Positions 551 through 62,974 of a stretch of DNA of 64,000 nt are shown here, in pieces. The notes under the pieces are model-generated. The model was not told the origin of the DNA, did no database searches, and saw only the letters and a program-made list of their open reading frames with translations. The position numbers and the translations under genes are program-made. Origin of the DNA: a bacterium (GTDB taxonomy: Bacteria; Omnitrophota; Gorgyraeia; Duberdicusellales; 4484-171); assembly GCA_021796115.1 (NCBI GenBank), contig JAJYOP010000006.1, forward strand, positions 8,359 through 72,358, given 5' to 3'. Position 1 is the first letter of the stretch. Each line of letters starts with the position of its first letter.

Positions 551-1294
551 ATGGAGAAGAAAATGGATAATACAAAAAGATTTTCCGAGGTAGAAATCCT
601 TGCCGGAGCTGTTGCACACGGATTGCGCAATCCTTTGGCAGCGATAAAGCTTGCGGTTTACAATATGAAGCGCAAAAAAACCGGCCTAGAGGAGGACAGG
701 CATCTTTTGAACATTGACAAGAAAATCGAAGAAAGCGAAAATCTTATAAATAGCCTTTTACTTTATTCACAATCAAGGCTTCTGCATTTTGATGAGATAG
801 ACATACATGAAATTCTTCTTGAATCTATCGCTTTCCTCAAGGGCAACCTTAAAAAAGACCGCCTAAAAGTTTCAGAAAAGAAGCGGTACCATGAGGACGC
901 GCTTACGGAAGCCGATCCTTTGCAAATAAAAGAAATGTTTGGCCATATCCTGAAAAACGCCTATGATGCCGTAAGCGAGAACGAAGGTAAAATAGAAATT
1001 ATAGCAGAGTATGCCGATAATGAATTTATTACGATACATTTTAAAGATGCGGGTTCAGGGATTGACGATGCGGACTTGCCCCGTATTTTTGAACCGTTTT
1101 TTACCACAAAACCAAAAGGTATCGGCCTTGGCCTTTCCATGAGCCGGCAGATAATCGAGCTGCACCAAGGAAAAATTAATATAACGAGCAAAAAAGGCGA
1201 AGGCACGACAGTAACCGTTATATTGCCGAAAAGGAAGCCAAATGACGCAGCAACTTTCCGGGTCTCTAGCGGCGACGAAAAATTACGTAGCTGA
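551..1294 (+). CDS. soluble sensor histidine kinase (HisKA + HATPase_c, no TM or sensor domain)
   Basis: H-box AHGLRNPLAAI. ATPase boxes LKNAYDA, DAGSGI, GIGLGLS. The last ~10 codons run into a palindromic repeat. Confidence 0.85.
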   Translation: MEKKMDNTKRFSEVEILAGAVAHGLRNPLAAIKLAVYNMKRKKTGLEEDRHLLNIDKKIEESENLINSLLLYSQSRLLHFDEIDIHEILLESIAFLKGNLKKDRLKVSEKKRYHEDALTEADPLQIKEMFGHILKNAYDAVSENEGKIEIIAEYADNEFITIHFKDAGSGIDDADLPRIFEPFFTTKPKGIGLGLSMSRQIIELHQGKINITSKKGEGTTVTVILPKRKPNDAATFRVSSGDEKLRS

Positions 1295-1476
1295 ATTTAG
1301 CCCCGCACTTACTTTTGTAACAACAATGTATTTATATAACAAAAAGTTATATCCAAAAACTCTTTTAATTTTGTTCAAACATACTTTCAAAAATAAGTGC
1401 GGAGCTAATTCGTACTATCATTTTTCCTTCGCCACTAGCGGCTCGGAAAAATGATGTACTCATTAAAGGAGGCAGA

Positions 1477-1839
1477 ATGTCAAAAAGGATTCTTATAACT
1501 GATGATGACCACGAACTCTGCGAGGAAATGGCTGAAATACTTAAAGTTGATGGCTATAATGTTGATATGGAATTTGACAGCTTATCTTGCGAAAGAGCCT
1601 TGAACAAGAAGAAATACGATATTTTTATCCTCGATTACAAAATGCCGGGTTTAAATGGCATTGAAATGCTAAAACTCATCAAACAAAGAGAACCGCAATC
1701 GAAAGTTTTTATTATCAGCGGCAAGCATAATATTAAAGATATGCTTCAGGAGGATAATCTTTATAATTTAGTAGATGGTTTTTTGAATAAGCCTTTTGAT
1801 GTTGACGAATTCCTCGCAAAAATAAAATCTGTATCCTAG
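1477..1839 (+). CDS. stand-alone response regulator receiver (CheY-like)
   Basis: ILITDDD ... ILDYKMPGLNG ... SGK receiver motifs. SD aaaggagg upstream. Confidence 0.85.
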   Translation: MSKRILITDDDHELCEEMAEILKVDGYNVDMEFDSLSCERALNKKKYDIFILDYKMPGLNGIEMLKLIKQREPQSKVFIISGKHNIKDMLQEDNLYNLVDGFLNKPFDVDEFLAKIKSVS

Positions 1840-1999
1840 GTGCGCTTTTACGAGCTATCACGTTAAAGCGTGTTACCTGCTACTTGTTACCTGATACGTT
1901 CCTCATAGATCAACGAAAAAAGTCAATAAAAATGAGAACTCGCCAATTTACTTTTCATACCCAGTGGTTAATATTATTTAGGTTAATTTTTATAATTAA

Positions 2000-2135
2000 C
2001 CCATTTTGTCAGAATTCCGCGGGCTTCGCCCCTTGGCCTTGCGGCGCAATGTATCAGCGTGGCGGAAAGGGACGTCGCCCGCGCTTTAAGCGGGCAAAAA
2101 AAGGGCCTACGGGTTTTGGCCGTGGGGGCCTCCAG
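2000..2135 (+). repeat. R1 repeat copy A (about 120-135 nt multi-hairpin element)
   Basis: Shares GGCGGAAAGGG-CGTCGCCCGCGCTTTAAGCGGGC-A-run-GGCC-ACGGG-TTT-GCCGTG-GGG-CTCCAG with copies at 12258, 23111 and 2704. ORF 1884..2138 is its translation artefact. Confidence 0.8.
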
Positions 2136-2221
2136 TAGTTGATATGTTTATTTTGACAGGGCAGTAATTAAGAAAATTTGTTGGTTCTTCGCCTGAAAAA
2201 ATTTTATGAGGGGGACGTAAT

Positions 2222-2617
2222 ATGAAAACAAAAAAAATATTAGTAGTTGATGATGACGAGGATTTTTTAAGAGAGTTAAGTGAAATGTTAACTTTAAGCG
2301 GCTATGCGATAATTTCTGCCCATGATAGCAAAATGGTAGCCCAGCTTGCTCAAAGTGTAAATCCCGATGTTATCCTTCTTGACCTTAAAATGAATGGGAT
2401 AGATGGATTTGAGGTAGCGCAAACTTTAAAAGATTCTTCGGAAACAAACCATATTCCGATTATAGCCATGACCGGATATTTTACTTCACCGGAGTACGCT
2501 GATTTGATAGAAAAATATGGCTTCAGGGGGTGCCTTAAAAAACCTTTCAATCCTTTAGACCTGATTATCCGCGTGGAAAGTATTCTGGCAAATAATAAGG
2601 ATAAGGACTGGATATAA
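2222..2617 (+). CDS. stand-alone response regulator receiver
   Basis: ILVVDDDEDF ... LLDLKMNGIDG ... MTG receiver motifs. SD gaggggga. Confidence 0.85.
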   Translation: MKTKKILVVDDDEDFLRELSEMLTLSGYAIISAHDSKMVAQLAQSVNPDVILLDLKMNGIDGFEVAQTLKDSSETNHIPIIAMTGYFTSPEYADLIEKYGFRGCLKKPFNPLDLIIRVESILANNKDKDWI

Positions 2618-2632
2618 TTTCGCGGGTTATTT

Positions 2633-2803
2633 ATGAAAGAAAACGCGCAATTTTATAACAAAATCCTGGATAATCTCTATGATGGCGTCTATGTATTAGA
2701 TATGGCGGGAAGGGGTGTCGCCCGCGCTTTAAGTGGGCGAAATAAAAATGAACCACGGGTAAAGCCCGTGCGGGCTCCAGTAAATTTTCGAAAAGCAGAT
2801 TAA
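2633..2803 (+). pseudogene. 5' remnant of a PAS-domain sensor gene truncated by an R1 repeat copy
   Basis: ATG at 2633 gives MKENAQFYNKILDNLYDGVYVLD, a typical PAS N-terminus. The frame then reads straight into repeat R1 (2704-2780) and stops at 2801. Confidence 0.6.
2704..2780 (+). repeat. R1 repeat copy B (3' two-thirds only)
   Basis: GGCGGGAAGGGGTGTCGCCCGCGCTTTAAGTGGGCGAAATAAAAATGAACCACGGGTAAAGCCCGTGCGGGCTCCAG matches the 3' part of the other copies. Confidence 0.8.
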
Positions 2804-2995
2804 CACAGATACGCGCAGGTTGCATAAAGTGTTCGCAGACAATTTTATCTATAATCTGCGCGTGTCTCGTGTTTTTATGTCCTGATTGCCGCACTTGTGA
2901 TATAATTTCAACCATTGAGTTCCAGGGAACAGGGCGCAGGTTAAACCATATTGGGCCCTGAACCCTGCACTCTGAAACTTGTTTAAAATAAGAAT

Positions 2996-4699
2996 ATGCT
3001 TAACGAACTTACGATAAAAATCGCAGGCGAAGCAGGCCAGGGAATGCAGACTGTCGGATTCAATCTTTGCCAGCTACTTAAAAGAACCGACTTTTACATT
3101 TTTGCCAATCAGGATTACATGTCCCGTGTGCGCGGCGGGAATAACTTTTTTCAACTCCGCATCTCACAAAAGCCTTCACAAGCTTGCCGAAAATTGAGCG
3201 ACATAATTGTTACGCTTGATAAGCAAAGCGTAGCTATCCATGGCACCAATCTTTCCGAAGGCGGCATACTCATAATGGATAGCAAAAAATTCAACATTGC
3301 CCAAGAAGAACGTTATTTTGATATTCCAATGTATGAAATGGCACTTAGCCTAGGTAGCGATTTATTCGTCAATTCGATAGTTTATGGATTAATTTCAGGG
3401 ATACTGGGTATAACCAACGGCAATATTTTTGAAGTTATTAAGGAAGCTTTTTCCGATAAGGGTGAAGAACTGATTTCAAAAAATATTGCCGCCGCAAAAG
3501 CTGGCATAGACTATGCGAAAAATAATTTCAAGGATGAAAGGTTTTTTATGACAGCAAGAACCGGAGAGCGTACTCTTCTGATGAACGGCAATGAGGCAAT
3601 TGCCCTGGGCGCGATACGCGCGGGTTGCAAATTTTATTCCGGTTACCCAATGACACCCTCAACAAGCATCATGAATGAAATGGCATATCACGCAAAAGAT
3701 TTTAATATCATAGTCGAACAGGCAGAAGACGAAATTGCGGCAATAAATATGGTAATCGGCGCTTCATTTGCCGGCGTAAGGGCGATGACAGCCACATCTG
3801 GCGGCGGCCTTTCTTTGATGGTCGAAGGATTATCGCTTGCGGCGATGACGGAAACGCCCGCAGTAATAGTAGATGCACAAAGGCCTGCGCCGGCCACGGG
3901 ATTTCCTACGCGCACTGAACAGGCTGATTTAAATTTTGTACTTTATTGCGGACACGGAGAATTTACCAGAGCAGTATTTACTCCGGGAACGATTGAGGAA
4001 GCCTACTATCTTACTATTCATGCTTTTAATCTTGCCGAAAAATATCAAATCCCGGTTTTGATTATGACTGATCAATATCTTGCCGATTCTTACCGCAACA
4101 TTTCAGAGCTTGACCGGAATGCGATAAAAGTTAAACGCTTTATTATCTCCAGAGAAGCTTCGAAAAACATTACAAATTATAAAAGGTATGAATTAACCGA
4201 TTCAGGCATATCGCCTCGCGCAATACCTTCCTGGATAAATGATGTAATCTATGCCGACAGCGATGAGCATAACCAAGAAGGCCATATCACCGAAGAGGCA
4301 AGAGTACGCGAGAGTATGGTAGAAAAAAGGCTTTATAAGAAAATGCAGGGCCTTGAGAAAGAAGTTATTGAGCCAAAATCTTATAACTTTGAAAAAGCAA
4401 CGATTGTAATTATCGGGTTTGGCTCAACTTTCGGAGCGATAAAAGAAGTTTCTGACGCATCTTCAGGAAAAATAGGGTTTATTCACCTTCCACAGGTTTG
4501 GCCTTTACCGAAAAAAGGACTGACAGATCTTTTAAAAAGCAAACAAAAGGTTATAACCGTAGAAAATAATGCTTCCGGACAGCTTGCAAAATTGCTGCAT
4601 TCCGAAGCCGATATAAAAATTGAAAAATCTATCCTTAAATTTGACGGAAGGCCGTTTAACGCGGACGATTTAATTGAAGAAGTAAATAAGTTATTATGA
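2996..4699 (+). CDS. 2-oxoacid:ferredoxin oxidoreductase, fused gamma/alpha subunit
   Basis: N-terminal gamma-type domain (IAGEAGQGMQTVG) followed by an alpha domain (GYPMTPST, AEDEIAA). Followed by the beta subunit gene. Confidence 0.85.
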   Translation: MLNELTIKIAGEAGQGMQTVGFNLCQLLKRTDFYIFANQDYMSRVRGGNNFFQLRISQKPSQACRKLSDIIVTLDKQSVAIHGTNLSEGGILIMDSKKFNIAQEERYFDIPMYEMALSLGSDLFVNSIVYGLISGILGITNGNIFEVIKEAFSDKGEELISKNIAAAKAGIDYAKNNFKDERFFMTARTGERTLLMNGNEAIALGAIRAGCKFYSGYPMTPSTSIMNEMAYHAKDFNIIVEQAEDEIAAINMVIGASFAGVRAMTATSGGGLSLMVEGLSLAAMTETPAVIVDAQRPAPATGFPTRTEQADLNFVLYCGHGEFTRAVFTPGTIEEAYYLTIHAFNLAEKYQIPVLIMTDQYLADSYRNISELDRNAIKVKRFIISREASKNITNYKRYELTDSGISPRAIPSWINDVIYADSDEHNQEGHITEEARVRESMVEKRLYKKMQGLEKEVIEPKSYNFEKATIVIIGFGSTFGAIKEVSDASSGKIGFIHLPQVWPLPKKGLTDLLKSKQKVITVENNASGQLAKLLHSEADIKIEKSILKFDGRPFNADDLIEEVNKLL

Positions 4700-4828
4700 C
4701 AAACTCTAAACTCGAAACCCTAAACTCTAAACAAACTATAAACTACAAAGTCCAAACACAAAACGTTTTGAGTTTAGAATTTTGAGTTTATGATTTGTTT
4801 AGAGTTTCGAGTTTAGTGTTTAGAATTT
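4700..4828. repeat. about 130-nt imperfect palindrome (word ctaaac/gtttag) between the oxidoreductase subunit genes
   Basis: Left arm is A/C-rich (caaactctaaactcgaaaccctaaactctaaac...). Centre is aaaacgtttt near 4760-4769. Right arm is G/T-rich (..gtttagagtttcgagtttagtgtttag). Confidence 0.85.
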
Positions 4829-4847
4829 AAATTAAACAGAGATATTT

Positions 4848-7544: not shown

Positions 7545-7600
7545 AGCAAGTGATATTTATCTGGAGTTTCCCCATTTTTTTATTTTTAAAGGACGGGTGT

Positions 7601-7677
7601 CACGGATTGTTGCGGATTCATACGGATAATTATAAGGTTTTATCCGTTTGCATCCGTAACATCCGTTTAAATCCGTG
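7601..7677. repeat. acggat/atccgt word palindrome
   Basis: cacggattgttgcggattcatacggataa ... ttatccgtttgcatccgtaacatccgtttaaatccgtg. ORF 7550..7744 is an artefact of it. Confidence 0.8.
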
Positions 7678-7763
7678 CCTGAAATGTTTACAGATTTGGT
7701 GTTTTGGCGCTAATTCGTGCCATGATGTCAGGCTGCTAAAGTAAATTTTAAAGGAGGTGTGTT

Positions 7764-7961
7764 ATGGCTATCGAGCGAGTTTCGAGGTCCAATCCTTCAT
7801 TAGGTAAACCTAAGGAAGCAATGCATGAAATGATTGCCAAACGTGCTTTTGAGATTTGTCAAAAGCGCGGTTGCCGGCCCGGCAATGAGTGGTCAGACTG
7901 GTTTGACGCGGAAAAAGAGATAAGAGCTGAATTACAGGCGGATATATCAGGAAAAAAATAG
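7764..7961 (+). CDS. DUF2934-like small protein
   Basis: IAKRAFEICQKRGCRPGNEWSDWFDAEKEI motif. Strong SD aaaggaggtg. Confidence 0.65.
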   Translation: MAIERVSRSNPSLGKPKEAMHEMIAKRAFEICQKRGCRPGNEWSDWFDAEKEIRAELQADISGKK

Positions 7962-8435: not shown

Positions 8436-8606
8436 TCTCTTTGATTAAGCATAGTAAAAGAATTTAGTGAAACCTCATCGGACTAATCCGTGAGGCTTAC
8501 TCCCGAGCAGTGTCCGGTAAGTACGATAACGATTGAAAAATAGTTAATAGTCCACAGGTTTTCGTCTATGACCTCTGCTCTGGACTATGGGCCAGATGGA
8601 GATACA

Positions 8607-9776: not shown

Positions 9777-10052
9777 AACTACTCGTGACAACGGAAGAAG
9801 TCAGAAATAAATGATATCGTCAAAGGCTCAGGATGTATTTATTGCTACCGCAAATAGGGAAAATTTTACCCACCCCATCTTTTTGAAAAACCAGGCAAGC
9901 TTGAGAAAGTTGCAGAGCTTGCGTTTACCGGTTTTCTAAATATTTATAACTAAAAATTCAGGATTAAAATTTATAGACTTATTTTTTGTGCTATAATATC
10001 TCCAACAAAAATAACAATTTTAGGTTACGAAAGTTACTTAAACATAAAAACT

Positions 10053-12244: not shown

Positions 12245-12257
12245 CCGCTGAAATTTA

Positions 12258-14701: not shown

Positions 14702-14717
14702 CCTCGAAATTGAATTT

Positions 14718-45748: not shown

Positions 45749-45759
45749 TTTAAACTAAT

Positions 45760-48160: not shown

Positions 48161-48162
48161 AG

Positions 48163-50450: not shown

Positions 50451-50458
50451 TTCAACTT

Positions 50459-51688: not shown

Positions 51689-51766
51689 TAATTTATGTTG
51701 CAAAGCGCAAAATTTTGCGTTTTAGCGTTTGCAAATTTGCGGTGTAAAATAATTTTTAAGAAACCA

Positions 51767-52234
51767 GTGAATATCATCGATAATTTTTATAGCCAATATA
51801 AAGAAAAGGTTGAAAAAATAATTAACGACGAAGGCGCAGAGCTAATAGATATCAAATTAAGCTTCTATATCGGCGATTATATTTTACGCTGCATTGTTGA
51901 TTATCCGGCAGGCGGCATAACTATCGACAAGTGTGCAAGACTTAATGGAAAAATTGTCAAATTTCTCGAGGAAAACAAAGCTTTGGGTGATAATTTCATT
52001 GTTGAGGTGAATTCTCCGGGCCTTGATAGGCCTTTAAAGACTTATAAAGATTTTGCAAGAATGAAGGGAAAAATTGTCGGTCTTTGGCCAAAGATTCCTT
52101 TGGAAGGAAAAGCATATTTTGAAGGTAAAGTATCGGAGGTATCAGAGAAAAATCTGACAGTAGAAATGAAAGGAAAAAAATATATTATTGATTTTGAGAA
52201 AATTCATTTAGGAAAAGAAAAATTGGAGGTCTAA
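51767..52234 (+). CDS. rimP: ribosome maturation factor RimP
   Basis: VEVNSPGLDRPLK motif, position upstream of nusA. The start is uncertain (GTG 51767 or upstream 51695, which lies in hairpin words). Confidence 0.8.
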   Translation: MNIIDNFYSQYKEKVEKIINDEGAELIDIKLSFYIGDYILRCIVDYPAGGITIDKCARLNGKIVKFLEENKALGDNFIVEVNSPGLDRPLKTYKDFARMKGKIVGLWPKIPLEGKAYFEGKVSEVSEKNLTVEMKGKKYIIDFEKIHLGKEKLEV

Positions 52235-52238
52235 AATA

Positions 52239-53495
52239 ATGAACAAAGAATTTATAACCGTGCTTGAACAATTAGAAAGAGAGAAGGGCCTTGATAAAAA
52301 CGTTCTTCTTGAGGCGGTAAAACACGCTTTAACCGTGGCCGCAAAAAAAATTGCAAAGATTACTTCTGCAACCGAGGATGTGAAAGTTGAGATAGACCCG
52401 GTAAAAGGGGATATCCATGTTTATATCTCCGATAAAGAAGTGGTTTCCAAGGAGTTCGGCAGGATTGCCGCTCAAACTGCAAGGCAGGTTATTATCCAAA
52501 AAATACGCGAAGCAGAAAAGGATAATGTTTATAATGAATTCAAAAAGAAAGAAGGCGATATTGTCGGCGGAATAGTTTACCGCATTGAACAAAAAGCGGT
52601 AATCCTGGATCTTCTGGGTAAAGCCGAGGGTGTTATTCCCTATTCTTTCCTTTCGCCTTTAGACCGATTCAGGCTTGGAGAAAGAGTAAAGGCTTTTGTT
52701 TATGAGGTTAAGAAAGACAAAGGAACGCAAATAATTCTTTCGAGAAAGCACGAAGGCCTTGTGAAAAAACTTTTTGAGCTTGAGGTCCCGGAAATTTTTG
52801 AAGGAGTGGTAGAAATCCGGTCGATTGCCAGAGAAGCCGGAGAAAGAACAAAGATAGCGGTTTTTTCTAAAGACGAAAAAGTCGACTGCGTAGGCGCCTG
52901 TGTCGGCATGCGCGGTTCACGGGTAAAAAATATAATCGAAGAGTTGCGCGGAGAAAAAATAGATATAGTCAGGTTCAGCGAAGACATAAAAGAATTTATC
53001 AAAGCCGCTTTAGCACCGGCAGTTATCTCAAGAATCGAGGTTGACCGTGAGGTTAAAAGAGCAAAGGTACTTGTCGCTAGCGATCAGCTTTCTCTTGCTA
53101 TAGGAAAAAGAGGGCAAAATGTACGGCTTGCTTCGCGGCTGGTCGGATGGGAAATAGATGTGCGTTCGCGCGAAGCTATTGAAGAAGAAGTCAACGATAT
53201 TTTGAAGTTAAAAAATATCGGCAAAAAACTTGCCGCAATTTTAGTCGATGCCGGATATGTGAGCCTTGAGAAGATCGCGGCAGTTAGTGCGGATGAGCTT
53301 TCGAAATTAAAAGGAATAGGCGAAAAGAAAGCGGCAAAAATTATCGAAGAAGCAAAAAAGGTGATCGAGGAGAAAAAAGCCGAGCTTGAAGTGGCTAAAA
53401 AAGAAACTGCGCAAAAAGAAGCGGAACAAAAAGCGATAGAACAAAAAGAGGCAGAACAGAAAGAAGCTTCCTCTGAAGAAAAAAAAACTGAATAA
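52239..53495 (+). CDS. nusA: transcription termination/antitermination factor NusA
   Basis: S1 and KH domains (GACVGMRGSRV, AIGKRGQNVRLAS). Confidence 0.95.
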   Translation: MNKEFITVLEQLEREKGLDKNVLLEAVKHALTVAAKKIAKITSATEDVKVEIDPVKGDIHVYISDKEVVSKEFGRIAAQTARQVIIQKIREAEKDNVYNEFKKKEGDIVGGIVYRIEQKAVILDLLGKAEGVIPYSFLSPLDRFRLGERVKAFVYEVKKDKGTQIILSRKHEGLVKKLFELEVPEIFEGVVEIRSIAREAGERTKIAVFSKDEKVDCVGACVGMRGSRVKNIIEELRGEKIDIVRFSEDIKEFIKAALAPAVISRIEVDREVKRAKVLVASDQLSLAIGKRGQNVRLASRLVGWEIDVRSREAIEEEVNDILKLKNIGKKLAAILVDAGYVSLEKIAAVSADELSKLKGIGEKKAAKIIEEAKKVIEEKKAELEVAKKETAQKEAEQKAIEQKEAEQKEASSEEKKTE

Positions 53496-53510
53496 AAAGG
53501 TGGTGCGAGA

Positions 53511-55421
53511 ATGCGAATCCATGAGTTAGCAAAAGAGCTGGGGATAGACACTAAGGAATTGATAACGAAATTACGCAGCATGAATTTTCCGGTTAAAAGC
53601 CATATGTCCAGCGTCGACAGCGATACTGCTGAAATTATCAAGAACGAAATATCCGTGCTCAAAGAAAAAGAAATAGAGGAAAATGTGATTGAGGCAGATT
53701 TCCCTATTTCGGTTAAAGATCTTGCGGTCAGATTAAATAAGAAACCTTCCGAACTTCTTGCAGATTTGTTAAGAGAAGGAAAATTTATTAATATAAATCA
53801 AAACCTTGATGAGGAAACCGCAAAAAAAATCGCTTATAAATATAAGATAAACTTAAAGAAGAAACCGAGTCAGGAAGAGGTAATTTTGCACACTGAGTCA
53901 AAGAATTTGAAGAGGAGGCCGCCGATAGTTACTCTTATGGGCCACATTGACCACGGGAAGACCAGCCTTCTTGACTATATCCGTAAAAGTAAAATCGCCG
54001 AGAAAGAAAGCGGAGGCATAACCCAGCATATCGGTGCATATCAGGTTACTCTTCCCAAGGGGAAAATTTCTTTTCTGGACACCCCAGGCCATGAAACTTT
54101 TACCGCAATGCGTTCGCGCGGAGCAAATCTTACCGATATTGTCATACTCGTGGTGGCTTCTGATGAAGGAGTGAAGCCTCAAACCGAAGAAGCGCTTGAT
54201 CACGCAAAAGCGGCAAATGTCCCGATTATCGTTGCGATAACCAAAATGGATAAAGCCAATGCCAATCCCGATATGGTAAAGCAGCAACTATCAAAGATTG
54301 GGCTTGTGCCGGAAGACTGGGGCGGTAAAACTACAACCATAGGAGTTTCTGCTAAAACCGGTAAGGGTATCGATGAACTATTGGAACTCATTCTGCTCCA
54401 GGCTGAATTACTCGATCTAAAAGCAGATTATACACGGCCGGCAGTTGGCGTAGCGGTTGAAGCTCGCCTGTCAAAAGGTAAAGGCCCATTGGTTGATATT
54501 TTAGTCAGGGAAGGGACGCTGCAAGTGGGTGATTGCTGTGTTTCCGGCCACTTCTGGGGAAAAATCAGAGCGATGAATGATGACCGTGGCGGCGCCGTTA
54601 ACGAAGCCTTGCCTGCGTCGGCAGTTGAAGTCGTCGGGCTGAATGGTGTTCCCAACCCGGGAGACCAGCTTTTCGTTGTTCCTGATGAAAAGGCGGCTAA
54701 AGAGATAGTTGAAAAACGAAGAGAAGAAGATGCGAAACTTAAACTAAAAAGCCCCGTGCATTTTAAACTCGAAGATTTATTCAAAAAGGTAAAAGAAGAA
54801 AAGATAAAACAATTAAAAGTAATATTAAAAGCCGATGTGGGCGGAACCCTTGAGGCAGTCGAAGAGGCTTTAAGGAAGATTTCTCACGAAGAAGTTGAAC
54901 TTGTGCTTACGCATAAAGGCGTCGGTTCAATAAATGCTTCGGATGTCCTTCTTGCGGAGGTAACTGATGCGATAATTGTAGGTTTCAAAGTTACCACAGA
55001 ACCGCAGGCAAGAGACCTGGCCAAGCAAAAAGGCATAGAGATCAGGGTTTATCAGATAGTTTATGAGCTCCTGGATGATATAAAAGCGGCATTTGAAGGA
55101 ATGCTTGCTCCGCATGTAAAGAAAATCTTTCTCGGCCGTGCCAGAGTAAAAACCGTTTTTAAACTTTCCAAATCCGGCATTATAGCTGGGTGTATTGTTG
55201 AAAAAGGAAGAGTCCAGAGAAATTTTGCCTGCCAGGTTTTACGCAGTAACGCACCGGTTTATGAAGGAAAAGTTCAGTCGCTCAAAAGATTTAAAGACGA
55301 TGTCAGGGATGTTGCCGAAGGCGTTGAATGCGGTATCGGTGTAGGGTTTGACGGCATCAAGGAAGGCGATGTTATTGATGTTTATAGCGAAGAGCTAGTT
55401 ACGAGGCGTTTGAAGGAATAG
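53511..55421 (+). CDS. infB: translation initiation factor IF-2
   Basis: [22 protein letters not shown] GTPase motifs. Confidence 0.95.
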
Positions 55422-55441
55422 ATAGAGAAACAATGCGAAAT

Positions 55442-55613
55442 AACCATGCTTCAAGATACAATAATCAAATAATGACCAAATCGCAAATTCCAAATACCAA
55501 ATAAATTCTAATATCCAATGACCAAAATTCCAAACCGAAAGCGTTTGGAACATTGGAATTTGGTACTTGAAGCTTGGAATTTGTTTAGGATTTGTATCTT
55601 GGTTATTGGTTAT
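55442..55613. repeat. ccaaat/atttgg hairpin family, copy 3
   Basis: ...aatgaccaaatcgcaaattccaaataccaaataaattctaatatccaatgaccaaaattccaaaccgaaagcgtttggaacattggaatttgg...cttggttattggtt. Confidence 0.85.
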
Positions 55614-55637
55614 TTTTTAAGTCACCTATCGAAAGAT

Positions 55638-56624
55638 ATGAACAAAAAAGTAATACTTAGCGGAATGCGGCCGACAGGCAAGCTTCACCTTGGCCATTGG
55701 GTTGGTGCTCTTTCTAACTGGGTTAAGCTCCAGAAAGATTATCAATGCTTTTTTATGGTGGCTGATTGGCACGCTTTAATGAGTGAATATAAAAATCCAG
55801 CTATATGCAGGGATTCTATGCTGGATAATGTCGCAGATTGGTTGGCTTACGGCATAGATCCAAAAAAATCAGTTGTTTTTGTACAATCAGAAGTAAAAGA
55901 ACATCTTGATCTTTTTGTCATACTTTCAAATTTAACTCCGCTTGGCTGGCTTTATCGCTGCCCTACTTTTAAAGAGCAGATAGAACAACTAAAAGAAAAA
56001 GAAATAAATACCTATTCATTCTTGGGGTATCCGGTTTTACAAGCGGCAGATATACTTTTGTATAAAGCGCATTTTGTTCCGGTAGGAGAAGACCAATTGC
56101 CCCATTTAGAGGTTGCGCGGGAAATCTTACGCCGTTTTCATTATTTATACCAAGCGCAGGTTTTTGTAGAACCCCAGGCGCTTCTTACCAAAGTGCCGCG
56201 GCTTATGGGTCTTGACGGCAGAAAAATGAGTAAAAGCTATAACAATTATATTGCTCTTGATGAAGAGGATAAAACGATTAAGGAAAAAGTTTCGAATATG
56301 ATTACCGATCCGGCAAGGATTAAGAAAGAAGACAAAGGCCACCCGGATGTTTGTAATATTTTCAGCTATTACGGTGTTTTTGCCGAGGATAAAAAAGAGG
56401 AAGTTTATAACTGGTGCACAAATGCTAAAAAGGGATGCGTAGAATGTAAAAAGATTTTTACAGATTTGCTAATTCAATTTGTTGCCCCGCACAGAGAAAA
56501 AAAGAAAGAATTTTTAAAGAAAAACGATTACATCTATGATATACTAAATGAAGGCAATAAGAAGGCGAGAGCGGTTGCGGAAAATACCCTGATTGAGACG
56601 AAAAAAGCAATGGGGTTAGTATGA
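55638..56624 (+). CDS. trpS: tryptophanyl-tRNA synthetase (with C-terminal four-Cys motif)
   Basis: GKLHLGHW (HIGH) and KMSKS motifs. ATG 55638 is preferred because the 55518 start lies inside the hairpin repeat. Confidence 0.9.
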   Translation: MNKKVILSGMRPTGKLHLGHWVGALSNWVKLQKDYQCFFMVADWHALMSEYKNPAICRDSMLDNVADWLAYGIDPKKSVVFVQSEVKEHLDLFVILSNLTPLGWLYRCPTFKEQIEQLKEKEINTYSFLGYPVLQAADILLYKAHFVPVGEDQLPHLEVAREILRRFHYLYQAQVFVEPQALLTKVPRLMGLDGRKMSKSYNNYIALDEEDKTIKEKVSNMITDPARIKKEDKGHPDVCNIFSYYGVFAEDKKEEVYNWCTNAKKGCVECKKIFTDLLIQFVAPHREKKKEFLKKNDYIYDILNEGNKKARAVAENTLIETKKAMGLV

Positions 56625-56816
56625 AATTCCAAATCCCAAATTCCAAGCATCAAATAAATTTCAATGACCAAAATTCCAATGTTCTAAACCGAACCTGTTT
56701 CGGTCATTCGGACATGGAAACTTGGAACTTATTTGGAATTTGTCCTTCGACTACGTTTAGGACAACCCTGGGCAAGTGCAACGCGTCGAAGGGTTGGAGC
56801 TTGGTGCTTGGGATTT
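56624..56816. repeat. ccaaat/atttgg hairpin family, copy 4, carrying a nested 52-nt mini-hairpin (56742-56793)
   Basis: gaaattccaaatcccaaattccaagcatcaaataaatttcaatgaccaaaattccaatgttctaaaccgaacctgtttcggtc...ggaattt[gtccttcgac...gtcgaaggg]ttggagcttgg. Confidence 0.85.
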
Positions 56817-56819
56817 AAC

Positions 56820-57527
56820 ATGAAAATTAGATTAGACATCTTCGAGGGCCCGCTGGATTTACTGCTTTATCTTATCAAAAAAGATCATTTAAACATTTAC
56901 GATATCCCCATAACCGTTGTTGTCGACCAATATTTACAATTTCTGGAACTCATGAAATTTCTGGATATTAATATTGCTTCAGAGTATATGGTTATGGCCG
57001 CAACTCTTATCAATATTAAATCAAAAACGCTTTTACCTAAGCCGCCAGAACCTGAAGAGCCGGAACTTGACCCGCGTGAAGAACTGGTGAAGCGCCTGCT
57101 TGAGTATGAGAAATTTAAAGAAGCAGCCGAATACCTTAAAGAGAAAGAAAGAGATCGTTTGAAATATATAGCCCGGTCGAGTTCGGAAATGGAAAGTAAA
57201 GAGATTTATCTTGAGGCTTCGATATTTGACCTCATAAGTGCTTTTAAGAGTGCGCTTTCCGATGTTCCAAGAGATATTTTCTTTGAAATCATAAAAGATG
57301 AATTTACAGTTGAGCAGAAAATACATGATCTCCTGCATCTGTTCCTGGTAAAAGAGACTGTCTCGCTTCATGATTTGTTTTCTTCCGCAAAAAGCAAACT
57401 GGAAGTGGTTGTAATATTCCTTGCTATATTAGAGCTTATTCGCTTGCGTGAAATAGTCGCCGTCCAAAAAGAGCTTTTTGGTTCGATTTCTCTTGCCAGA
57501 AGGCAAAATGTTGTAGCCTGCCCTTAA
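56820..57527 (+). CDS. scpA: segregation and condensation protein A
   Basis: FEGPLDLLLYLIKK N-terminal signature. ATG 56820 is preferred over the start inside the repeat. Confidence 0.9.
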   Translation: MKIRLDIFEGPLDLLLYLIKKDHLNIYDIPITVVVDQYLQFLELMKFLDINIASEYMVMAATLINIKSKTLLPKPPEPEEPELDPREELVKRLLEYEKFKEAAEYLKEKERDRLKYIARSSSEMESKEIYLEASIFDLISAFKSALSDVPRDIFFEIIKDEFTVEQKIHDLLHLFLVKETVSLHDLFSSAKSKLEVVVIFLAILELIRLREIVAVQKELFGSISLARRQNVVACP

Positions 57528-57562
57528 CAGCCGAAAAACCAAATGGTGAAGGACAATAGACG

Positions 57563-58567
57563 ATGGAGGAGGGACGAGTAGTAGATTATTTACAGGAAAA
57601 TGAGGAAGAGAAGGTAATAAATCTTTCCCTTCGTCCCCAGGGTATTTCTGATTTTATCGGCCAAACAAACGTAATTTCTGCGCTTGAGATAGCTATCCAG
57701 GCGGCCAAGAAAAGAGAAGAGCCGCTTGAGCATGTACTTTTATCAGGCCCTCCCGGGCTTGGCAAAACCAGCCTTGCGTATGTAATCGCTCATGAGATGG
57801 GCGCAAAATTAACTTCTACCAGCGGTCCGGCGATTGAGCGTGCCGGAGATTTAGTCGGTATTCTGACCAACCTCGAAAAGGGCGACATACTTTTTATCGA
57901 TGAAATCCATCGGCTTTCCAAGATAGTTGAAGAATTTTTATACCCGGCAATGGAAAATTTTCAGATTGATTTTGTTATCGATAAAGGGCCATACGCAAAA
58001 AGTGTAAAGTTCAATTTAAAACCGTTTACTTTGGTTGGCGCGACGACAAGGAAAGGTTTGCTTAGTTCTCCTTTACGGGGCAGATTCGGCCTTTTTTATG
58101 ATTTTGATTTTTATACCATCGAAGATCTTGCCAGAATAATTGAACGTAGCGCAAAACTTCTTGATATAAAAATAGATACGGAAAGTTCTCATGAGATAGC
58201 CGGTAGGGCCCGTGGTTCGCCCAGGCTCTCTAACCGCCTGCTAAAGAGAGTAAGAGATTACTCGCAAGTCCGGTCAGAGGGGATTATAAATTTAGAACTT
58301 GCCAAAGAGGCACTTGAGTATTCAAGGATTGATGCCAATGGTTTTGATGATTTGGATAGAAAATACCTTAAGGCATTAATTGAGCTTCACGGCGGCGGTC
58401 CCGCCGGCATAGAAGCGATTGCGGCTTCTTTAGGGGAGGATAAAGGAACTCTTGAGGACGTTGTTGAACCCTACCTTTTAAACAAAGGTTTTATTATACG
58501 GACACCTCGCGGCCGCCAGGTTACCGAATTAACCTACCAGCAGCTAAAAAATAGCTCAAAAAAATAA
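57563..58567 (+). CDS. ruvB: Holliday junction branch migration helicase RuvB
   Basis: GPPGLGKTS Walker A, FIDEIHRL, ATTRKGLLSSPLRGRFG. Confidence 0.95.
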   Translation: MEEGRVVDYLQENEEEKVINLSLRPQGISDFIGQTNVISALEIAIQAAKKREEPLEHVLLSGPPGLGKTSLAYVIAHEMGAKLTSTSGPAIERAGDLVGILTNLEKGDILFIDEIHRLSKIVEEFLYPAMENFQIDFVIDKGPYAKSVKFNLKPFTLVGATTRKGLLSSPLRGRFGLFYDFDFYTIEDLARIIERSAKLLDIKIDTESSHEIAGRARGSPRLSNRLLKRVRDYSQVRSEGIINLELAKEALEYSRIDANGFDDLDRKYLKALIELHGGGPAGIEAIAASLGEDKGTLEDVVEPYLLNKGFIIRTPRGRQVTELTYQQLKNSSKK

Positions 58568-58761
58568 ATCCCTAAAACCCCTTGTTTATCATTGATTTTT
58601 CCGCCAAATAGGCTTTTCTTCAAAACTGTAAACATTTACAAATCCGTAGTTTTTTTATTTTTAACTGGATTTATAAACAGATTTATGCTATATTGTAGTT
58701 GAGGTTAAACATATGATTATCGATAAAAGCCTGGCCGGGGCCAAGGCAGGGAGGTGAATAA

Positions 58762-58980
58762 ATGGCGCAAAAAATTAAACACAGAGATGGATTTATTGGA
58801 TGCCGGACTTCCAGAGCAATTGAAGATAAATTAAAAGAATTTTGTTCAGAGCACAGCCGCGAAGTTAGCGAAGTGATGAATTATCTTTGCAGGTTGTTTA
58901 TCGAAGACGCGTATCAGATTCGTACGAAATTCTTCTTTGGTTCGAACCACCCGGAGAATCCGGAAAAGACTGAAGTCTAA
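58762..58980 (+). CDS. small protein, possibly ribbon-helix-helix DNA-binding
   Basis: IGCRTSRAIEDKLKEFCSEHSREVSEVMNYLCRLFIE fits a beta-strand/helix/helix pattern. gggaggtg SD. Confidence 0.3.
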   Translation: MAQKIKHRDGFIGCRTSRAIEDKLKEFCSEHSREVSEVMNYLCRLFIEDAYQIRTKFFFGSNHPENPEKTEV

Positions 58981-59261
58981 AAGGAAAAGTTACTATCTTA
59001 TGGCTTGTGCTATTTAGATTATTATTCGCGGCGGCAATTTTTCTGGAATTGTGTTTACCGCAAGCAATGTCGCTAACGATGTTACTGCCATATTTTTCTA
59101 AAAAAACCACTTCTTGATTGCGAAAAGGCCATAGGAATTTACCGCTTACAAAACTTCATTTTTTCCTAAGTTGTGGTATAATCTAACCCAATTTTCTTAT
59201 CACAAAAGCGCAAAGGATTTTTTGCAGCTTTGCGGAATTTTACGGTTTAGCGGTGTCAACC

Positions 59262-59489
59262 ATGAACAATTTAGGAAAATCTCTTATAATAATTGGCATT
59301 TTCATAACTCTGGCAGGATTGCTTCTGGTTTTATTCACACGCTTTAAAATTCCTTTCTTGGGAAGGCTTCCCGGCGATATTTTAATCAAAAAAGAAAATT
59401 TTACTTTTTATTTTCCACTGGCCACATCAATTTTGATCAGTGTTATTTTAAGCGCAATTTTATATCTTATTGCAAAGATACATAAATGA
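59262..59489 (+). CDS. DUF2905-family small membrane protein
   Basis: GRLPGDI motif between two TM helices. Confidence 0.7.
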   Translation: MNNLGKSLIIIGIFITLAGLLLVLFTRFKIPFLGRLPGDILIKKENFTFYFPLATSILISVILSAILYLIAKIHK

Positions 59490-59508
59490 CAAAACGATAG
59501 CTGGAGAA

Positions 59509-60899
<1,391 letters not shown>

Positions 60900-60907
60900 T
60901 TTTTTAT

Positions 60908-60960
60908 ACGGATTCAAACGGATGGTTACGGATTCAGCGGATTAATCCGTCCGCATCCGT
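60908..60960. repeat. acggat/atccgt word palindrome
   Basis: acggattcaaacggatggttacggattcagcggattaatccgtccgcatccgt. Shares acggattcaaacggatg with the reverse complement of 62895-62974. Confidence 0.8.
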
Positions 60961-60995
60961 ACTAAATATTTGATATATAATTTTTAGTTTATTCA

Positions 60996-61688
60996 ATGAT
61001 TATTGATATTATAACCATTTTCCCCGAGATGTTTGCGCCGGTAATCAACGAATCGATTATTAAACGGGCGCAAACTAAAGGGCTTCTTAAGATAAATATC
61101 CACGATTTAAGAAAATACACTGATGATCCGCACAAAAAGGTTGACGCACCAGGCTATGGCGGAGGCGGCATGGTTTTCCGGCCGGAGCCGTTTTTTAAAG
61201 CGACAGAATCGATTCTGGGATATAAAATTTATCCCCCGGAAAAAAAAGATAAAAATAAACGGATTATTCTTTTGAGTCCGCAGGGTAAAACTCTAAAACA
61301 GGCAACTGCGAAAAAATTTCTCAATTACGAAAGGCTGATACTTCTTGCGCCGCGCTATGAAGGGGTTGATGAGCGAGTGGCCAGATATTTAGCGGAAGAG
61401 GAAGTTTCTGTCGGTGATTATGTATTAAGCGGGGCAGAGCTTGCAGCCATGCTTTTTGTTGATTGCGTAACCAGGCTTATCCCGGGGGTTGTCTCGGACA
61501 AGGAATCGATAAAGCGGGAAAGTTTTGAGAATAAGCTTCTTGATTACCCGTCTTATACGAGGCCCGAAGATTTTCGCGGCCTGAAGGTGCCGGAAGTTTT
61601 ACTTTCCGGCAACCACGGAAAGATTGATAAATGGCGTGAAGAAAAAGCTTTAGAGGCGACAAAAAAGAAAAGGCCAGATTTATTATGA
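60996..61688 (+). CDS. trmD: tRNA (guanine37-N1)-methyltransferase
   Basis: IFPEMF, GGGGMV, LLAPRYEGVDERV, SVGDYVLSGAELAAM motifs. Confidence 0.95.
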   Translation: MIIDIITIFPEMFAPVINESIIKRAQTKGLLKINIHDLRKYTDDPHKKVDAPGYGGGGMVFRPEPFFKATESILGYKIYPPEKKDKNKRIILLSPQGKTLKQATAKKFLNYERLILLAPRYEGVDERVARYLAEEEVSVGDYVLSGAELAAMLFVDCVTRLIPGVVSDKESIKRESFENKLLDYPSYTRPEDFRGLKVPEVLLSGNHGKIDKWREEKALEATKKKRPDLL

Positions 61689-61727
61689 TAATAACCCCCT
61701 CGCTACGTCCCAAACTTCGTTTGGGAC

Positions 61728-61826
61728 AATTCGACTAGGCTTTTTTGCTTCGCAAAAAAGCAAGTCTCATTGCTCGGGGGTATAATTCGACTAGGCTTTT
61801 TTCGATAGAAAAAAGCAAGTCTCATT
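61728..61826 (+). repeat. two tandem about 44-nt hairpin units separated by 12 nt
   Basis: aattcgactaggcttttttgcttcgcaaaaaagcaagtctcatt / aattcgactaggcttttttcgatagaaaaaagcaagtctcatt. Confidence 0.85.
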
Positions 61827-61893
61827 ATCGCACTAACATTTTTTCTGCGCCACTGGGGGCTTGAAAAAATGTTGTGCTCATTAGGAGGTACAA

Positions 61894-62241
61894 ATGGATA
61901 AACTAATGATGGTGGAAAAGGAATTAAGAGACAGTATGGCAAAGAAATACGGCGCATTCTCACCCGGAGACATTGTCAATGTTTATTACAAGATTCGGGA
62001 AAAAGACAAAGAGAGGATACAGCACCTTGAGGGTATAGTAATAAAAATTCACGGTGCAATGAACCGTAAATCTTTTACTTTAAGAAGAATATCTTACGGA
62101 GAGGCATACGAAATTACTTTTCCGTATTATTCACCGAACATTGATAAGATCGAATTGGTTAAGAAGGCTGCAAAAGCGCCAAGGCGGAATAAACTATACT
62201 ATTTAAGAGAAAGAATTGGGAAGCAGGCAATGACGGTATAA
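61894..62241 (+). CDS. rplS: 50S ribosomal protein L19
   Basis: [29 protein letters not shown] ... [16 protein letters not shown] aggagg. Confidence 0.95.
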
Positions 62242-62253
62242 ATTCAGGGTACA

Positions 62254-62298
62254 GGGTAAAGGGTGCAGGGTTCAGTCTTAAAACTGCACCCTTTACCC
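62254..62298. repeat. perfect 15-bp stem hairpin of the cagggt/accctg word family
   Basis: gggtaaagggtgcag (62254-62268) pairs with ctgcaccctttaccc (62284-62298). No T-run follows. Confidence 0.85.
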
Positions 62299-62332
62299 TT
62301 AACCTTCTACTCTGTAAATTATTGGTTCAATT

Positions 62333-62887
62333 ATGATAGTAGGCGTTGACGAAGCAGGCCGCGGGCCATTAGCGGGAGCGGTAACCAGCTGTGCACTTTA
62401 TCTTGAAAAAAATCCGCCTTTAGAAATTAAGGATTCAAAAGAATTAACGCCTCAAGCGCGTGAGAAAATTTTTTGCTGGCTCCAAAATAACGCTCTTTTT
62501 TCAGTAAGTATTGCGACTCATACGGAAATCGACAGGTTCAATATCCTTAACGCAACTTTTTTGTCCTTTGAGCGTTCTATTTCAGGACTCATCAGGCAAG
62601 CGCCGTATTTAAAGAAAGCAATGTTTATCATTGATGGCAATCTCTTTCGGACGAATTTAGATATTAAATACAAATGCATACCGAAAGCTGATAAAACCGT
62701 AAAACAAGTTTCCTGTGCTTCGATAATCGCAAAGGTGACAAGAGACCATTTGATGAATTCGGCCCATTTCCTGTATCCGGAATGGAATTTCGCAAAGCAC
62801 AAAGGTTATCCTACCAAGGAACATTATTCGTTAATAAAGAAATACGCTCTTTCACCGTTACACAGAAGGAGTTTCCGGTTAGGATAG
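62333..62887 (+). CDS. rnhB: ribonuclease HII
   Basis: GVDEAGRGPLAGAV, IIDGN, ASIIAKVTRD motifs. Confidence 0.9.
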   Translation: MIVGVDEAGRGPLAGAVTSCALYLEKNPPLEIKDSKELTPQAREKIFCWLQNNALFSVSIATHTEIDRFNILNATFLSFERSISGLIRQAPYLKKAMFIIDGNLFRTNLDIKYKCIPKADKTVKQVSCASIIAKVTRDHLMNSAHFLYPEWNFAKHKGYPTKEHYSLIKKYALSPLHRRSFRLG

Positions 62888-62894
62888 TTTTTAT

Positions 62895-62974
62895 GGACGG
62901 ATGCAGACAGATGGTTACGGATGCCACGGATGAAATCATCCGTTTGAATCCGTAATAATCCGTGACATCCGCGC
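62895..62974. repeat. acggat/atccgt word palindrome
   Basis: ggacggatgcagacagatggttacggatgccacggatgaaatcatccgtttgaatccgtaataatccgtgacatccgc. Confidence 0.8.

Follow-up and report, generated by a model that had tools for sequence, protein, structure and literature searches.

The intergenic DNA of a 64-kb stretch from an Omnitrophota bacterium (contig JAJYOP010000006.1, positions 8,359 to 72,358; hereafter the window) carries palindromes built from short repeated words. In these elements, a family word of 5-7 nt stands in 2-8 copies at fixed pitch on one arm, and its reverse complements stand on the other. The elements are multi-copy, homologous, polymorphic, nested, and restricted to a sub-lineage, and one has been flipped in place. 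They are probably several families of non-coding, dispersed palindromic foldback elements of ca. 50-250 nt, with behaviour like that of repetitive extragenic palindromes (REPs), their doublets (REPINs), and the miniature inverted-repeat transposable elements known as MITEs, a reading in which we place moderate confidence.

Survey of the intergenic gaps

The window has a GC content of ca. 39%, with 8.8 kb of intergenic and 55 kb of coding DNA, and all its mapped genes except one lie on the + strand. We scanned the 43 gaps of at least 25 nt for their best inverted repeat and compared the scores with those of shuffled sequences. An inverted repeat with z ≥ 3.8 was found in only 14 of the 43, so that the statement in a first-pass annotation that almost every gap is palindromic was too broad. 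When other families were included, reading of the gap sequences gave some repeat or palindrome in about half of the gaps.

A word-array detector, which requires at least two tandem 5-mers at 6-12-nt pitch followed within 100 nt by at least two tandem reverse complements, returned 14 clusters in the window, against a mean of 0.3 and a maximum of 2 in shuffles. Applied to 61 kb of loci from related Omnitrophota, the detector likewise returned 14 clusters, and on 92 kb of low-GC control DNA (Lachnospiraceae/Saganbacteria) it returned none. Twelve of the 14 window clusters were intergenic; those at 1125-1204 and 51700-51740 lay within called open reading frames (ORFs). Folds of ≤ −30 kcal/mol occurred in 16.8% of mostly intergenic scan frames compared with 1.9% of coding ones (nine times). 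ACGGAT/ATCCGT was found 23 times in the intergenic DNA, in 8 gaps, and 21 times in the coding DNA (ca. 7-fold enrichment; p = 2e-9), and intergenic enrichment was also observed for CGTAAC and CTAAAC. DNA-fold z-scores, each calculated against 200 dinucleotide shuffles, reached −8.95. These results indicate that the word-and-reverse-complement palindromes exceed the level of shuffled sequence and that their words are reused in intergenic DNA, as the annotation had supposed. Comparison with control genomes and with sequences shuffled by dinucleotides or in blocks ruled out chance. Additionally, the spacers on the 173-kb ENA contig were identical to those on Logan contig L010, assembled from a different sample (both contigs carry a 100%-identity RNase HII gene); therefore, the elements are not an assembly artefact.

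Nineteen stretches had been cited as examples. Most of them are real word-array hairpins, but six folded no better than shuffles: 35296-35335 (z = −0.86), 8544-8600 (−1.1), 28181-28232 (−1.1), 10018-10045 (−0.4), 30086-30125 (+1.0), and 37673-37698 (+0.4). The stretches at 10018 and 30086 look like single-arm remnants, and 37673 is a short direct 7-mer repeat. Folding was modest at 17524, 39215, and 1838 (z about −2.2 to −2.3). The proposed GGTTACG family held for the arrays at 17524 and 33341, whereas the word is not present in 1838-1900 and the 10018 copy folds at shuffle level. The ca. 190-nt nested palindrome reported at the 3′ end of the histidine kinase gene (1262-1455) was borne out. 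Taken together, the original observation was partly confirmed.

CTAAAC, CAGGGT, and CCAAAT words recur every 7 nt, and ACGGAT and GGTTACG words every 9-10 nt; arm periodicity was determined with Tandem Repeats Finder (TRF). Since the second arm carries the array of reverse-complement words, the DNA or its transcript folds into one extended hairpin, in which small internal loops interrupt a series of short, perfectly paired helices. The features of the window are as follows (MFE, minimum free energy; IR, best inverted repeat; handles of the form L001 denote other contigs).

1262-1455, nested inverted repeat of ca. 190 nt with outer arms CTAGCGGCGACGAAAAA/TTTTTCCTTCGCCACTAG and inner arms AGCCCCGCACTTAC/GTAAGTGCGGAGCT (IR z = 6.0; RNA MFE −52.7), overlapping the histidine-kinase ORF (551-1294) by its final 33 nt and having as its right part (1415-1470) a family X hairpin (described below), adjoining the Shine-Dalgarno sequence of the response-regulator gene
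2921-2967, CAGGG/CCCTG hairpin, a small CAGGGT-family member (fold z = −3.98 for 2921-2985; k = 5 cluster at 2923-2967)
4700-4828, CTAAAC/GTTTAG palindrome with period-7 arrays on both arms (fold z = −8.95 for 4700-4830; IR z = 14.9; TRF AAACTCT/GTTTAGA at 4701-4829), beginning at the base after the korA-like stop and ending 19 nt 5′ of the korB-like start (Pfam POR/POR_N upstream, TPP_enzyme_C/PFO_beta_C downstream)
7601-7677, ACGGAT ×3 / ATCCGT ×4 hairpin with 10-nt phasing (fold z = −5.99 for 7590-7680; TRF period 10, ACGGATNNNN at 7602-7676)
14440-14528, GGAAGGCCC element between divergent genes, a 45-nt unit present twice with internal hairpins (TRF 45 nt, 1.9 copies, 86% match; z = −3.51)
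14530-14705, large CCAAAT/ATTTGG palindrome reaching into the called TTG start at 14679 (fold z = −6.65 for 14530-14675; IR z = 14.2; TRF CCAAATT, period 7, at 14538), with 85-91% BLAST identity to the copies at 44109, 55466, and 59531
17524-17609, GGTTACG/CGTAAC element with a short left arm and CGTAAC ×5 on the right arm (TRF period 9, 4.6 copies, GTAACTTCC at 17566-17607; IR z = 4.4; fold z only −2.2), beginning 1 nt past the upstream stop codon
18393-18427, TAGTCGACAA/TTGTCGACTA hairpin of the CCATAG-GTCGAC family (fold z = −4.22 for 18389-18428), 4 nt past the upstream stop and overlapping the called TTG start of the next ORF
24508-24569, + strand, 17-bp hairpin followed by TTTATT (terminator-scan match 24517-24553; fold z = −4.94), probably a hairpin of the usual terminator-like kind, outside the word-array set
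33341-33430, array of five AGGTTACGA (TRF period 9, 33343-33384) followed by a partial mirrored arm (fold z = −2.96), 13 nt past the stop of the gene at 30106-33327, whose 1073-aa product has 80%-identical relatives in Candidatus Omnitrophota metagenome-assembled genomes
35296-35335, minimal ACGGAT remnant recognised by sequence (GCGGAT + ATCCGT ×2; fold z = −0.86, not significant), just 3′ of a GC-rich hairpin with a T-rich tail at 35244-35293 (IR z = 4.0) that is kept in L001
39215-39270, second GGAAGGCCC-family hairpin (CCTTCC...GGAAGG; RNA MFE −20.9; DNA fold z = −2.2)
44080-44226, CCAAAT-family palindrome directly 3′ of the canonical terminator 44035-44059, which the terminator scan called with 10 pairs and a T-run (90.7% BLAST identity over 75 nt to 59559-59633; orthologous copy at L001 12680-12816)
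55450-55610, CCAAAT-family palindrome between infB and a tRNA-synt_1b gene (TRF CCAAATT at 55475)
56620-56800, CCAAAT-family palindrome with a second small palindrome nested in it (GTCCTTCGAC...GTCGAAGGGTTGG), 85% identical over 148 nt to 59567-59713 (TRF CCAAATT at 56624)
59505-59750, CCAAAT-family palindrome of ca. 250 nt with the same nested insert as the 56620 copy (RNA MFE −108; TRF CCAAATT at 59545)
60908-60960, ACGGAT ×4 / ATCCGT ×2 element in the tgt/trmD gap (fold z = −3.16 for 60900-60965), orthologous to a 4+4 copy in L011
61694-61885, composite trmD/rplS spacer consisting of a CCCCC...GGGGG hairpin, a duplicated AATTCGACTAGGCTTTTTT..AAAAAAGCAAGTCTCATT hairpin, and family X (IR z = 7.4; RNA MFE −82)
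62245-62314, CAGGGTA ×4 heptad array and mirrored array in the rplS/rnhB gap (fold z = −6.25 for 62243-62316; TRF CAGGGTA, period 7, at 62245-62275)
62897-62973, ACGGAT ×4 / ATCCGT ×4 element in the rnhB/yraN gap (fold z = −3.72 for 62890-62975)

Copies within the genome and at orthologous junctions

CCAAAT has 5 copies and ACGGAT 4-5 in the window, and CTAAAC has 3 in the ca. 73 kb of this genome that is visible. The five CCAAAT copies were 85-91% identical over 75-148 nt by BLAST; CCAAAT is probably one of the two families to which the annotation added its further ones, and its architecture is the same as theirs. Beyond korA/korB, the CTAAAC element was found twice in the same genome just past the window (L009 14578-14842 and 16385-16774) and at the yraN/FTCD junction of a relative (L035 1962-2064). 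ACGGAT copies from various loci, genomes, and samples have in common the spacers GGTT, GTC, TTGA, AACA, and GAC and an outer T-run/AAG stem; on five contigs of one metagenome, their left arms agree almost base for base by eye. Relatives of the CCATAG-GTCGAC motif occur at 28181 and, reversed, at L009 13348-13416, and a CACGT hairpin lies at dnaE/hup here and at trmD/rplS in L011. CCAAAT and CTAAAC elements contain other small palindromes; what had been called nested palindromes are small palindromes lying in larger ones.

Members of a family had been said to share words more than exact sequence. The words are indeed invariant, but several families share non-word bases as well. Across 15 ACGGAT elements with a pitch of 10-11 nt, word columns were 98-100% conserved and spacer columns 35-70%, and 95% of word positions were paired in the predicted fold compared with 44% of spacer positions. 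ACGGAT elements were co-directional with the flanking genes at 10 of 11 informative loci, several of which are orthologous duplicates; this is only suggestive, a weak hint of strand-specific insertion or function.

We compared orthologous spacers in relatives whose RNase HII is 86, 82, 74, 72, and 69% identical to that of the source genome, a comparison that the annotation had proposed between strains. The presence, family, and orientation of elements differed by junction. yraN and FTCD are 5 nt apart here, separated by a CTAAAC palindrome in L035 and by a GTGTAATG palindrome in L011, and overlapping in L012 and L037. The spacer of L001 (5220-5651) orthologous to 33341-33430 is without that element, with the adjoining downstream promoter and 5′ untranslated region (UTR) kept, and an ACGGAT element of L001 occupies a junction that measures 11 nt in the window. 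At rplS/rnhB, word hairpins are built from CAGGGTA in the window, TAAGGTT in L011, AGGTTGATA in L012, and CAGATGG in L036 and L037; no such hairpin was found there in L398, L399, and L400. These last three are more distant Omnitrophota, two of them complete genomes (CP070797 and CP070807), with gene order and GC as in the source genome.

The ACGGAT element of rnhB/yraN (window 62888-62980) is inverted in place relative to that of L035 (1507-1613; 86% RNase HII identity). Its orientation can be defined since the arms are not exact mirrors (N4-GGTT-GTC, then TTGA-AACA-GAC). The reverse complement aligned at 66/76 positions without gaps compared with 57/79 with gaps for the direct alignment, and the left flank TTTTTATGG was kept.

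In a syntenic block whose GC is 0.40-0.42 throughout, word-array clusters number 7 in the source genome and 8 in L011. None were found in this block of L012, L400, L398, and L399 (72-57% RNase HII identity), and the spacers there sum to 250-418 nt, compared with 1357 nt for those of the source genome. At these junctions, the more distant Omnitrophota, whose operons are the same, have no hairpins and 0-60 nt of spacer. Since distant relatives have the same gene order and GC and are without clusters, the elements were gained in one sub-lineage, in which the intergenic DNA of this block has roughly tripled to quintupled. Their behaviour is that of small mobile DNA of recent arrival in this lineage and unlike that of ordinary terminators.

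Several other features were observed beside the word palindromes. The family X hairpin (AATTCGCACTAnCATTTTTTCTGCGC..loop..CTTGAAAAAATGnTGTGCTCATTA) occurs at 1415-1470, at 61840-61885, and reversed at 23232-23282, and in relatives at L001 1-55, L035 ca. 800-860, and L037 ca. 3020-3075. At both the response-regulator gene and rplS it directly precedes the Shine-Dalgarno sequence and start, and it takes the same position upstream of rplS in L037 (69% identity). A GC-rich repeat of ca. 60-130 nt (GGCGGAAAGGGnCGTCGCCCGCGCTTTAAGCGGGC...CCACGGGCTTTAGCCCGTGCGGG) is present at 1990-2140, 2703-2780, 12255-12377, and 23120-23230 and partially at 39140-39185; its copies are 88-95% identical, have no Rfam match, and are unrelated in composition to the AT-rich word palindromes. 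A copy is also nested in the CTAAAC element L009 16385-16774. The rplS/rnhB spacer of L035 (349-951; 603 nt) contains a family X hairpin, a GAAATT word palindrome, and an extra 132-aa ORF, the N-terminus of which reads like a prepilin signal (KKNFTLIEAVIA...). Two proteins encoded at window 35417-38228, an SpvB/ZU5/Ig-like protein of 753 aa and a '23S rRNA-intervening sequence protein' (PF05635), have no counterpart at the syntenic L001 7053-7467, where family X-like hairpins lie instead. Small ORFs at 7744-7940 (ca. 65 aa) and 22125-22340 (ca. 71 aa) in long gaps look paralogous by eye, with a ...W(S/L)DW..AE.E.. motif. The long gaps 29165-29405 and 40231-40505 have no palindromic repeat and no Rfam match; 29221-29320 folds at −36.6 kcal/mol per 100 nt and could be a leader or small RNA.

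The elements also mislead gene callers. Mechanically called ORFs start at TTG inside CCAAAT palindromes at 14679, 55518, 56733, and 59631. The public TGT call begins inside the 59505-59750 palindrome and has 422 aa, compared with 370-371 aa in relatives, with the Pfam TGT domain starting from residue 64; it is probably ca. 52 aa too long because a TTG within the palindrome was taken as the start. N-termini that begin in CCAAAT palindromes are probably over-extended. The end of the L035 contig inside an element fits the breaking of assemblies by repeats.

Proposed mobility, RNA function, and word recognition

Among the explanations offered in the first-pass annotation, REP-like elements are best supported, since dispersed homologous repeats vary in presence, family, and orientation at orthologous junctions and are confined to a sub-lineage. 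Its broader interpretation, a process that makes or maintains palindromic spacers genome-wide, is partly supported. We infer that the elements may have been copied and pasted into gene junctions by an enzyme that acts in trans from another part of the genome; the most natural candidate would be a hairpin-recognising HUH/Y1 transposase, either a REP-associated tyrosine transposase (RAYT) or one of the IS200/IS605 type. The number of words would be altered by replication slippage and the orientation by recombination or template switching between inverted arms. Copies would persist because a hairpin just past a stop codon would be nearly neutral, and some may have been co-opted as mRNA 3′-end or intercistronic hairpins.

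Several results weigh against mobile foldback elements. Pfam searches of 60 window proteins, in the ca. 73 kb of visible genome, revealed no transposase, RAYT, or other mobilising gene. No target-site duplication was recognisable between filled and empty yraN/FTCD junctions; with relatives this divergent, and with the L035 contig breaking off inside the element, neither a duplication nor an exact boundary is definable. The REP tag GTAG/CGTC lies within 8 nt of the foot in only 3 of 20 elements. The many word families in a probably small genome would require many cognate enzymes or a sequence-independent mechanism. For most families, the window contains no more than one or two full copies, and copy numbers for the whole genome are thus extrapolations. 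Conservation is much higher in words than in spacers, which is unexpected under simple selfish copying. Finally, a hairpin stands at rplS/rnhB in all five closest lineages (the window, L011, L012, L036, and L037) despite their differing words, and is followed by a T5 run in L011, L036, and L037; this pattern could reflect selection for a hairpin at that site.

We consider it somewhat unlikely that the elements are primarily functional intercistronic or 3′-UTR stem-loops, which would block 3′-exonucleases, serve RNase III-type processing, or attenuate read-through in co-oriented gene runs, with the words as a by-product of slippage and arm-to-arm correction homogenised by concerted evolution. 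Ten of 20 elements begin 0-15 nt past the upstream stop codon, the stems are long enough to be substrates of double-strand-specific RNases, and the recurrent rplS/rnhB hairpin fits such a role. Operon stem-loops that control subunit stoichiometry have been documented in other systems (PMC4423207), and the placing of the korA/korB element, flanked by the genes for the two subunits of one 2-oxoacid:ferredoxin oxidoreductase (Pfam), is in keeping with such a function. However, the sense strand had no advantage: 12 of 29 hairpins folded better on + and 16 on −, with balanced G:U pairs (Wilcoxon p = 0.43), and sense-strand selection at the RNA level was thereby ruled out. Family X and CCATAG/GTCGAC occur in both orientations, one ACGGAT element is inverted between orthologs, and the same junction is occupied by differing families in relatives or is empty. 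Distant Omnitrophota have the same operons without hairpins, which are therefore not needed for these genes.

The distribution of terminators bears on the same question. As the annotation had noted, most elements are without a T-run, which follows only 2 of 20. Canonical terminators separate from the elements were detected at 38254-38276 and 44035-44059, and a terminator scan of 43950-63900 called no word palindrome; the 35244-35293 hairpin reads as a canonical terminator by sequence and is not called in the + strand scan. Two elements (35296 and 44080) lie just 3′ of canonical terminators, which also counts against an RNA function. With the scarcity of T-runs, the copy inside the korA/korB operon, and the existence of separate terminators, intrinsic (Rho-independent) termination was rejected. 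Transcription insulation or termination as the primary role, another of the earlier suggestions, is disfavoured by the korA/korB copy, the post-terminator copies, the absence of strand bias, and the hairpin-free relatives.

Searches against Rfam 15 gave gathering scores only for three tRNAs; matches to the elements were sub-threshold noise (plant miRNA-precursor models at 14540-14660). An identity as integron attC sites is likewise not supported, with housekeeping flanks in conserved synteny (tgt-trmD-rplS-rnhB, korAB, and nusA-infB), no integrase among the window proteins, and word arrays in place of R/L boxes. By Pfam, the window encodes korA/korB-like and two-component proteins, nusA-infB, a trpS-type synthetase, scpA, ruvB, tgt-trmD-rplS-rnhB-yraN, and uppS-cdsA-dxr-rseP-ispG.

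ACGGAT arrays were also found outside the Omnitrophota. The pattern ACGGAT-N4-ACGGAT-GGTT-ACGGAT (22 specified bases), for which less than one chance match is expected assuming ca. 10^12 bases in the collection, was present on 22 metagenome contigs, 9 of which have 53-65% GC and one of which is assignable to Terriglobales. The matches were complete elements or left arms only, and in no case were the arms split by a gene. On the Terriglobales contig, the array lies 3′ of gatB; on a contig with 53% GC (L013 4176-4290), ACGGAT ×3 is followed by a direct array of GACGGAC ×3 and then GGCGGAC.

Viral contigs in IMG/VR carry CACGGAT ×3 arrays at ca. 10-nt pitch with variable spacers. The form TTTTAAC CACGGATnnn CACGGATnnn CACGGAT occurred in at least 58 viral loci, with up to 4 per locus among the matches listed. 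These arrays are mostly without a mirrored arm and sometimes adjoin an ATG. Two permuted control words also gave at least 120 viral matches, nearly all of them exact 9-nt repeats, whereas among the ACGGAT matches listed, 79 of 146 had pitches other than 9 nt and 89 of 146 had unequal spacers. The raw viral count was therefore dropped as a measure of enrichment, and only the kind of match differs. No match to the CACGGAT motif was obtained by blastn against GenBank phages, where low-complexity filtering is possible, and two ORF-based tests of array orientation relative to genes were uninformative at 55-68% GC.

With distinct phased ACGGAT arrays in other phyla and viruses, a protein may recognise the word, or the family may pass from one phylum to another. 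A bolder reading, which we judge unlikely, is that the elements form an undescribed prokaryotic foldback class whose unit, for recognition as for evolution, is a phased 6-7-nt word and not the whole hairpin. The array would be bound by a word-reading protein, either a transposase or nuclease or a regulator that binds RNA or DNA. Such a class would account for the invariant words, the drifting unpaired spacers, the in-place flips, and the occurrence of ACGGAT in Omnitrophota, Terriglobales (Acidobacteriota), and viruses. If the words are so recognised, a new nucleic-acid-binding specificity would be common to distant bacteria and phages.

That the arrays are simply platforms for word-specific DNA or RNA binders, with the hairpin form secondary or regulatory through sequestration of the sites, appears quite improbable. 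Candidate binders would be an oligomerising transposase, a ribbon-helix-helix or OmpR-type protein, or, for ACGGAU, a CsrA/RsmA-type RNA binder. The conservation and pairing of words relative to spacers in the 15 ACGGAT elements are consistent with binding, as are the 10-11-nt pitch of about one helical turn, the phased arrays with GGTT spacer in 53-65% GC contigs including that of Terriglobales, and the distinct viral class of CACGGAT ×3 arrays unseen with the permuted control words. Against it, the 64 kb and close relatives contain at least eight unrelated words, spaced at 7, 9, and 10 nt; so many words are unreadable by one protein, and one reader per family is unlikely in a small genome. 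The words are base-paired in the hairpin, the wrong presentation for CsrA-type binding, and no candidate binding protein was identified. The protein or RNase recognition code of the first-pass annotation may hold at least for ACGGAT, whose words are invariant, paired, and recurrent across phyla. We take CACGGAUG to resemble the high-affinity CsrA/RsmE motif. A CsrA sponge RNA of the CsrB/RsmZ kind is not supported: ACGGAU includes ANGGA, but 95% of its word positions are paired in the predicted fold, and the other families are without GGA.

That nothing special is present (inverted repeats that arose by chance in AT-rich spacers, common intrinsic terminators, or artefacts of assembly) is hardly credible: the six shuffle-level stretches and the ordinary terminator-like sites at 24517-24553, 38254-38276, and 44035-44059 fit it, but almost no word-array hairpins arise in shuffles or in controls of similar GC, the spacers recur identically in an independent assembly from another sample, and related elements occur in many independent metagenomes.

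Relation to known repeat systems

At least eight families of this unusual word-built type occur in one sub-lineage of an uncultured phylum, in which the two complete genomes compared here are only 1.5 and 1.8 Mb. Its element-free sister lineages with the same gene order offer a natural before-and-after comparison for invasion, mobilisation, and host co-option. A literature search for palindromic intergenic repeats in Omnitrophota found nothing relevant, and the elements were compared with systems from other organisms.

REP/REPIN elements owe their mobility to RAYT transposases, which are of the Y1/HUH type (Bertels & Rainey 2011, PMC3116915; Nunvar et al. 2010, PMC2817692; Di Nocera et al. 2013, PMC3733652). 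Like them, the present elements are short non-coding extragenic palindromes, often in operons or past stop codons, with several families per genome; the unit is a hairpin-forming doublet as in REPINs, lineage-specific and without coding capacity. They differ in that their arms are tandem arrays of 5-7-nt words, whereas a REP is a single imperfect palindrome of 20-40 nt, in the rarity of the GTAG/CGTC tag (3/20), and in that the DNA inspected contains no RAYT. The host is an uncultured phylum of the PVC group and not a proteobacterium; most knowledge of REP, REPIN, and MITE sequences comes from cultivated Proteobacteria, Firmicutes, and Cyanobacteria.

The REP of E. coli malE-malF forms an intercistronic mRNA stem-loop. 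Selective RNA processing and stabilisation via such stem-loops is described in PMC4423207. Stable hairpins inside operons, including those of multi-subunit enzymes, are common to both, as at korA/korB here. The known stem-loops are strand-specific RNA under selection, whereas the present elements have no strand bias and are absent from relatives with the same operon.

Bacterial MITEs include Correia/NEMIS, RUP, ERIC, Nezha, and Chunjie. They resemble the present elements in their length of 50-250 nt, terminal inverted repeats folding as a hairpin, dispersed intergenic copies, insertion polymorphism, and nesting. In contrast, in the present case no target-site duplication or parent insertion sequence was identified, the whole element is an inverted repeat, and the arms consist of subrepeats, which are atypical of bacterial MITEs. 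A Porphyromonas MITE with an internal minisatellite is described in PMC4596501.

Tandem 7-nt intergenic words have precedents. Cyanobacterial short tandemly repeated repetitive (STRR) sequences are intergenic heptamer arrays. TAACTGA direct repeats occur in Beggiatoaceae, Cyanobacteria, and Bacteroidetes, with 169 direct sets and one inverted (MacGregor 2015, PMC4679880). The patchy spread of such words across phyla, as for ACGGAT, and the lack of a known mechanism are further likenesses. Those repeats are direct and mostly just 5′ of start codons, whereas the words reported here are mirrored and mostly past stop codons.

Foldback (FB) elements of Drosophila and other eukaryotes have long inverted arms made of short tandem subrepeats. 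We know of no comparable bacterial element in the literature. FB elements belong to eukaryotes, are on the kilobase scale, and in some cases are coding, and no homology is implied (see also PMC3169594). They are nevertheless the closest architectural match to the word-built palindromes: period-7, -9, and -10 arrays were found on both arms by TRF and confirmed by the detector, and both kinds of element consist of inverted arms of tandem subrepeats, variable in number and prone to inversion and rearrangement.

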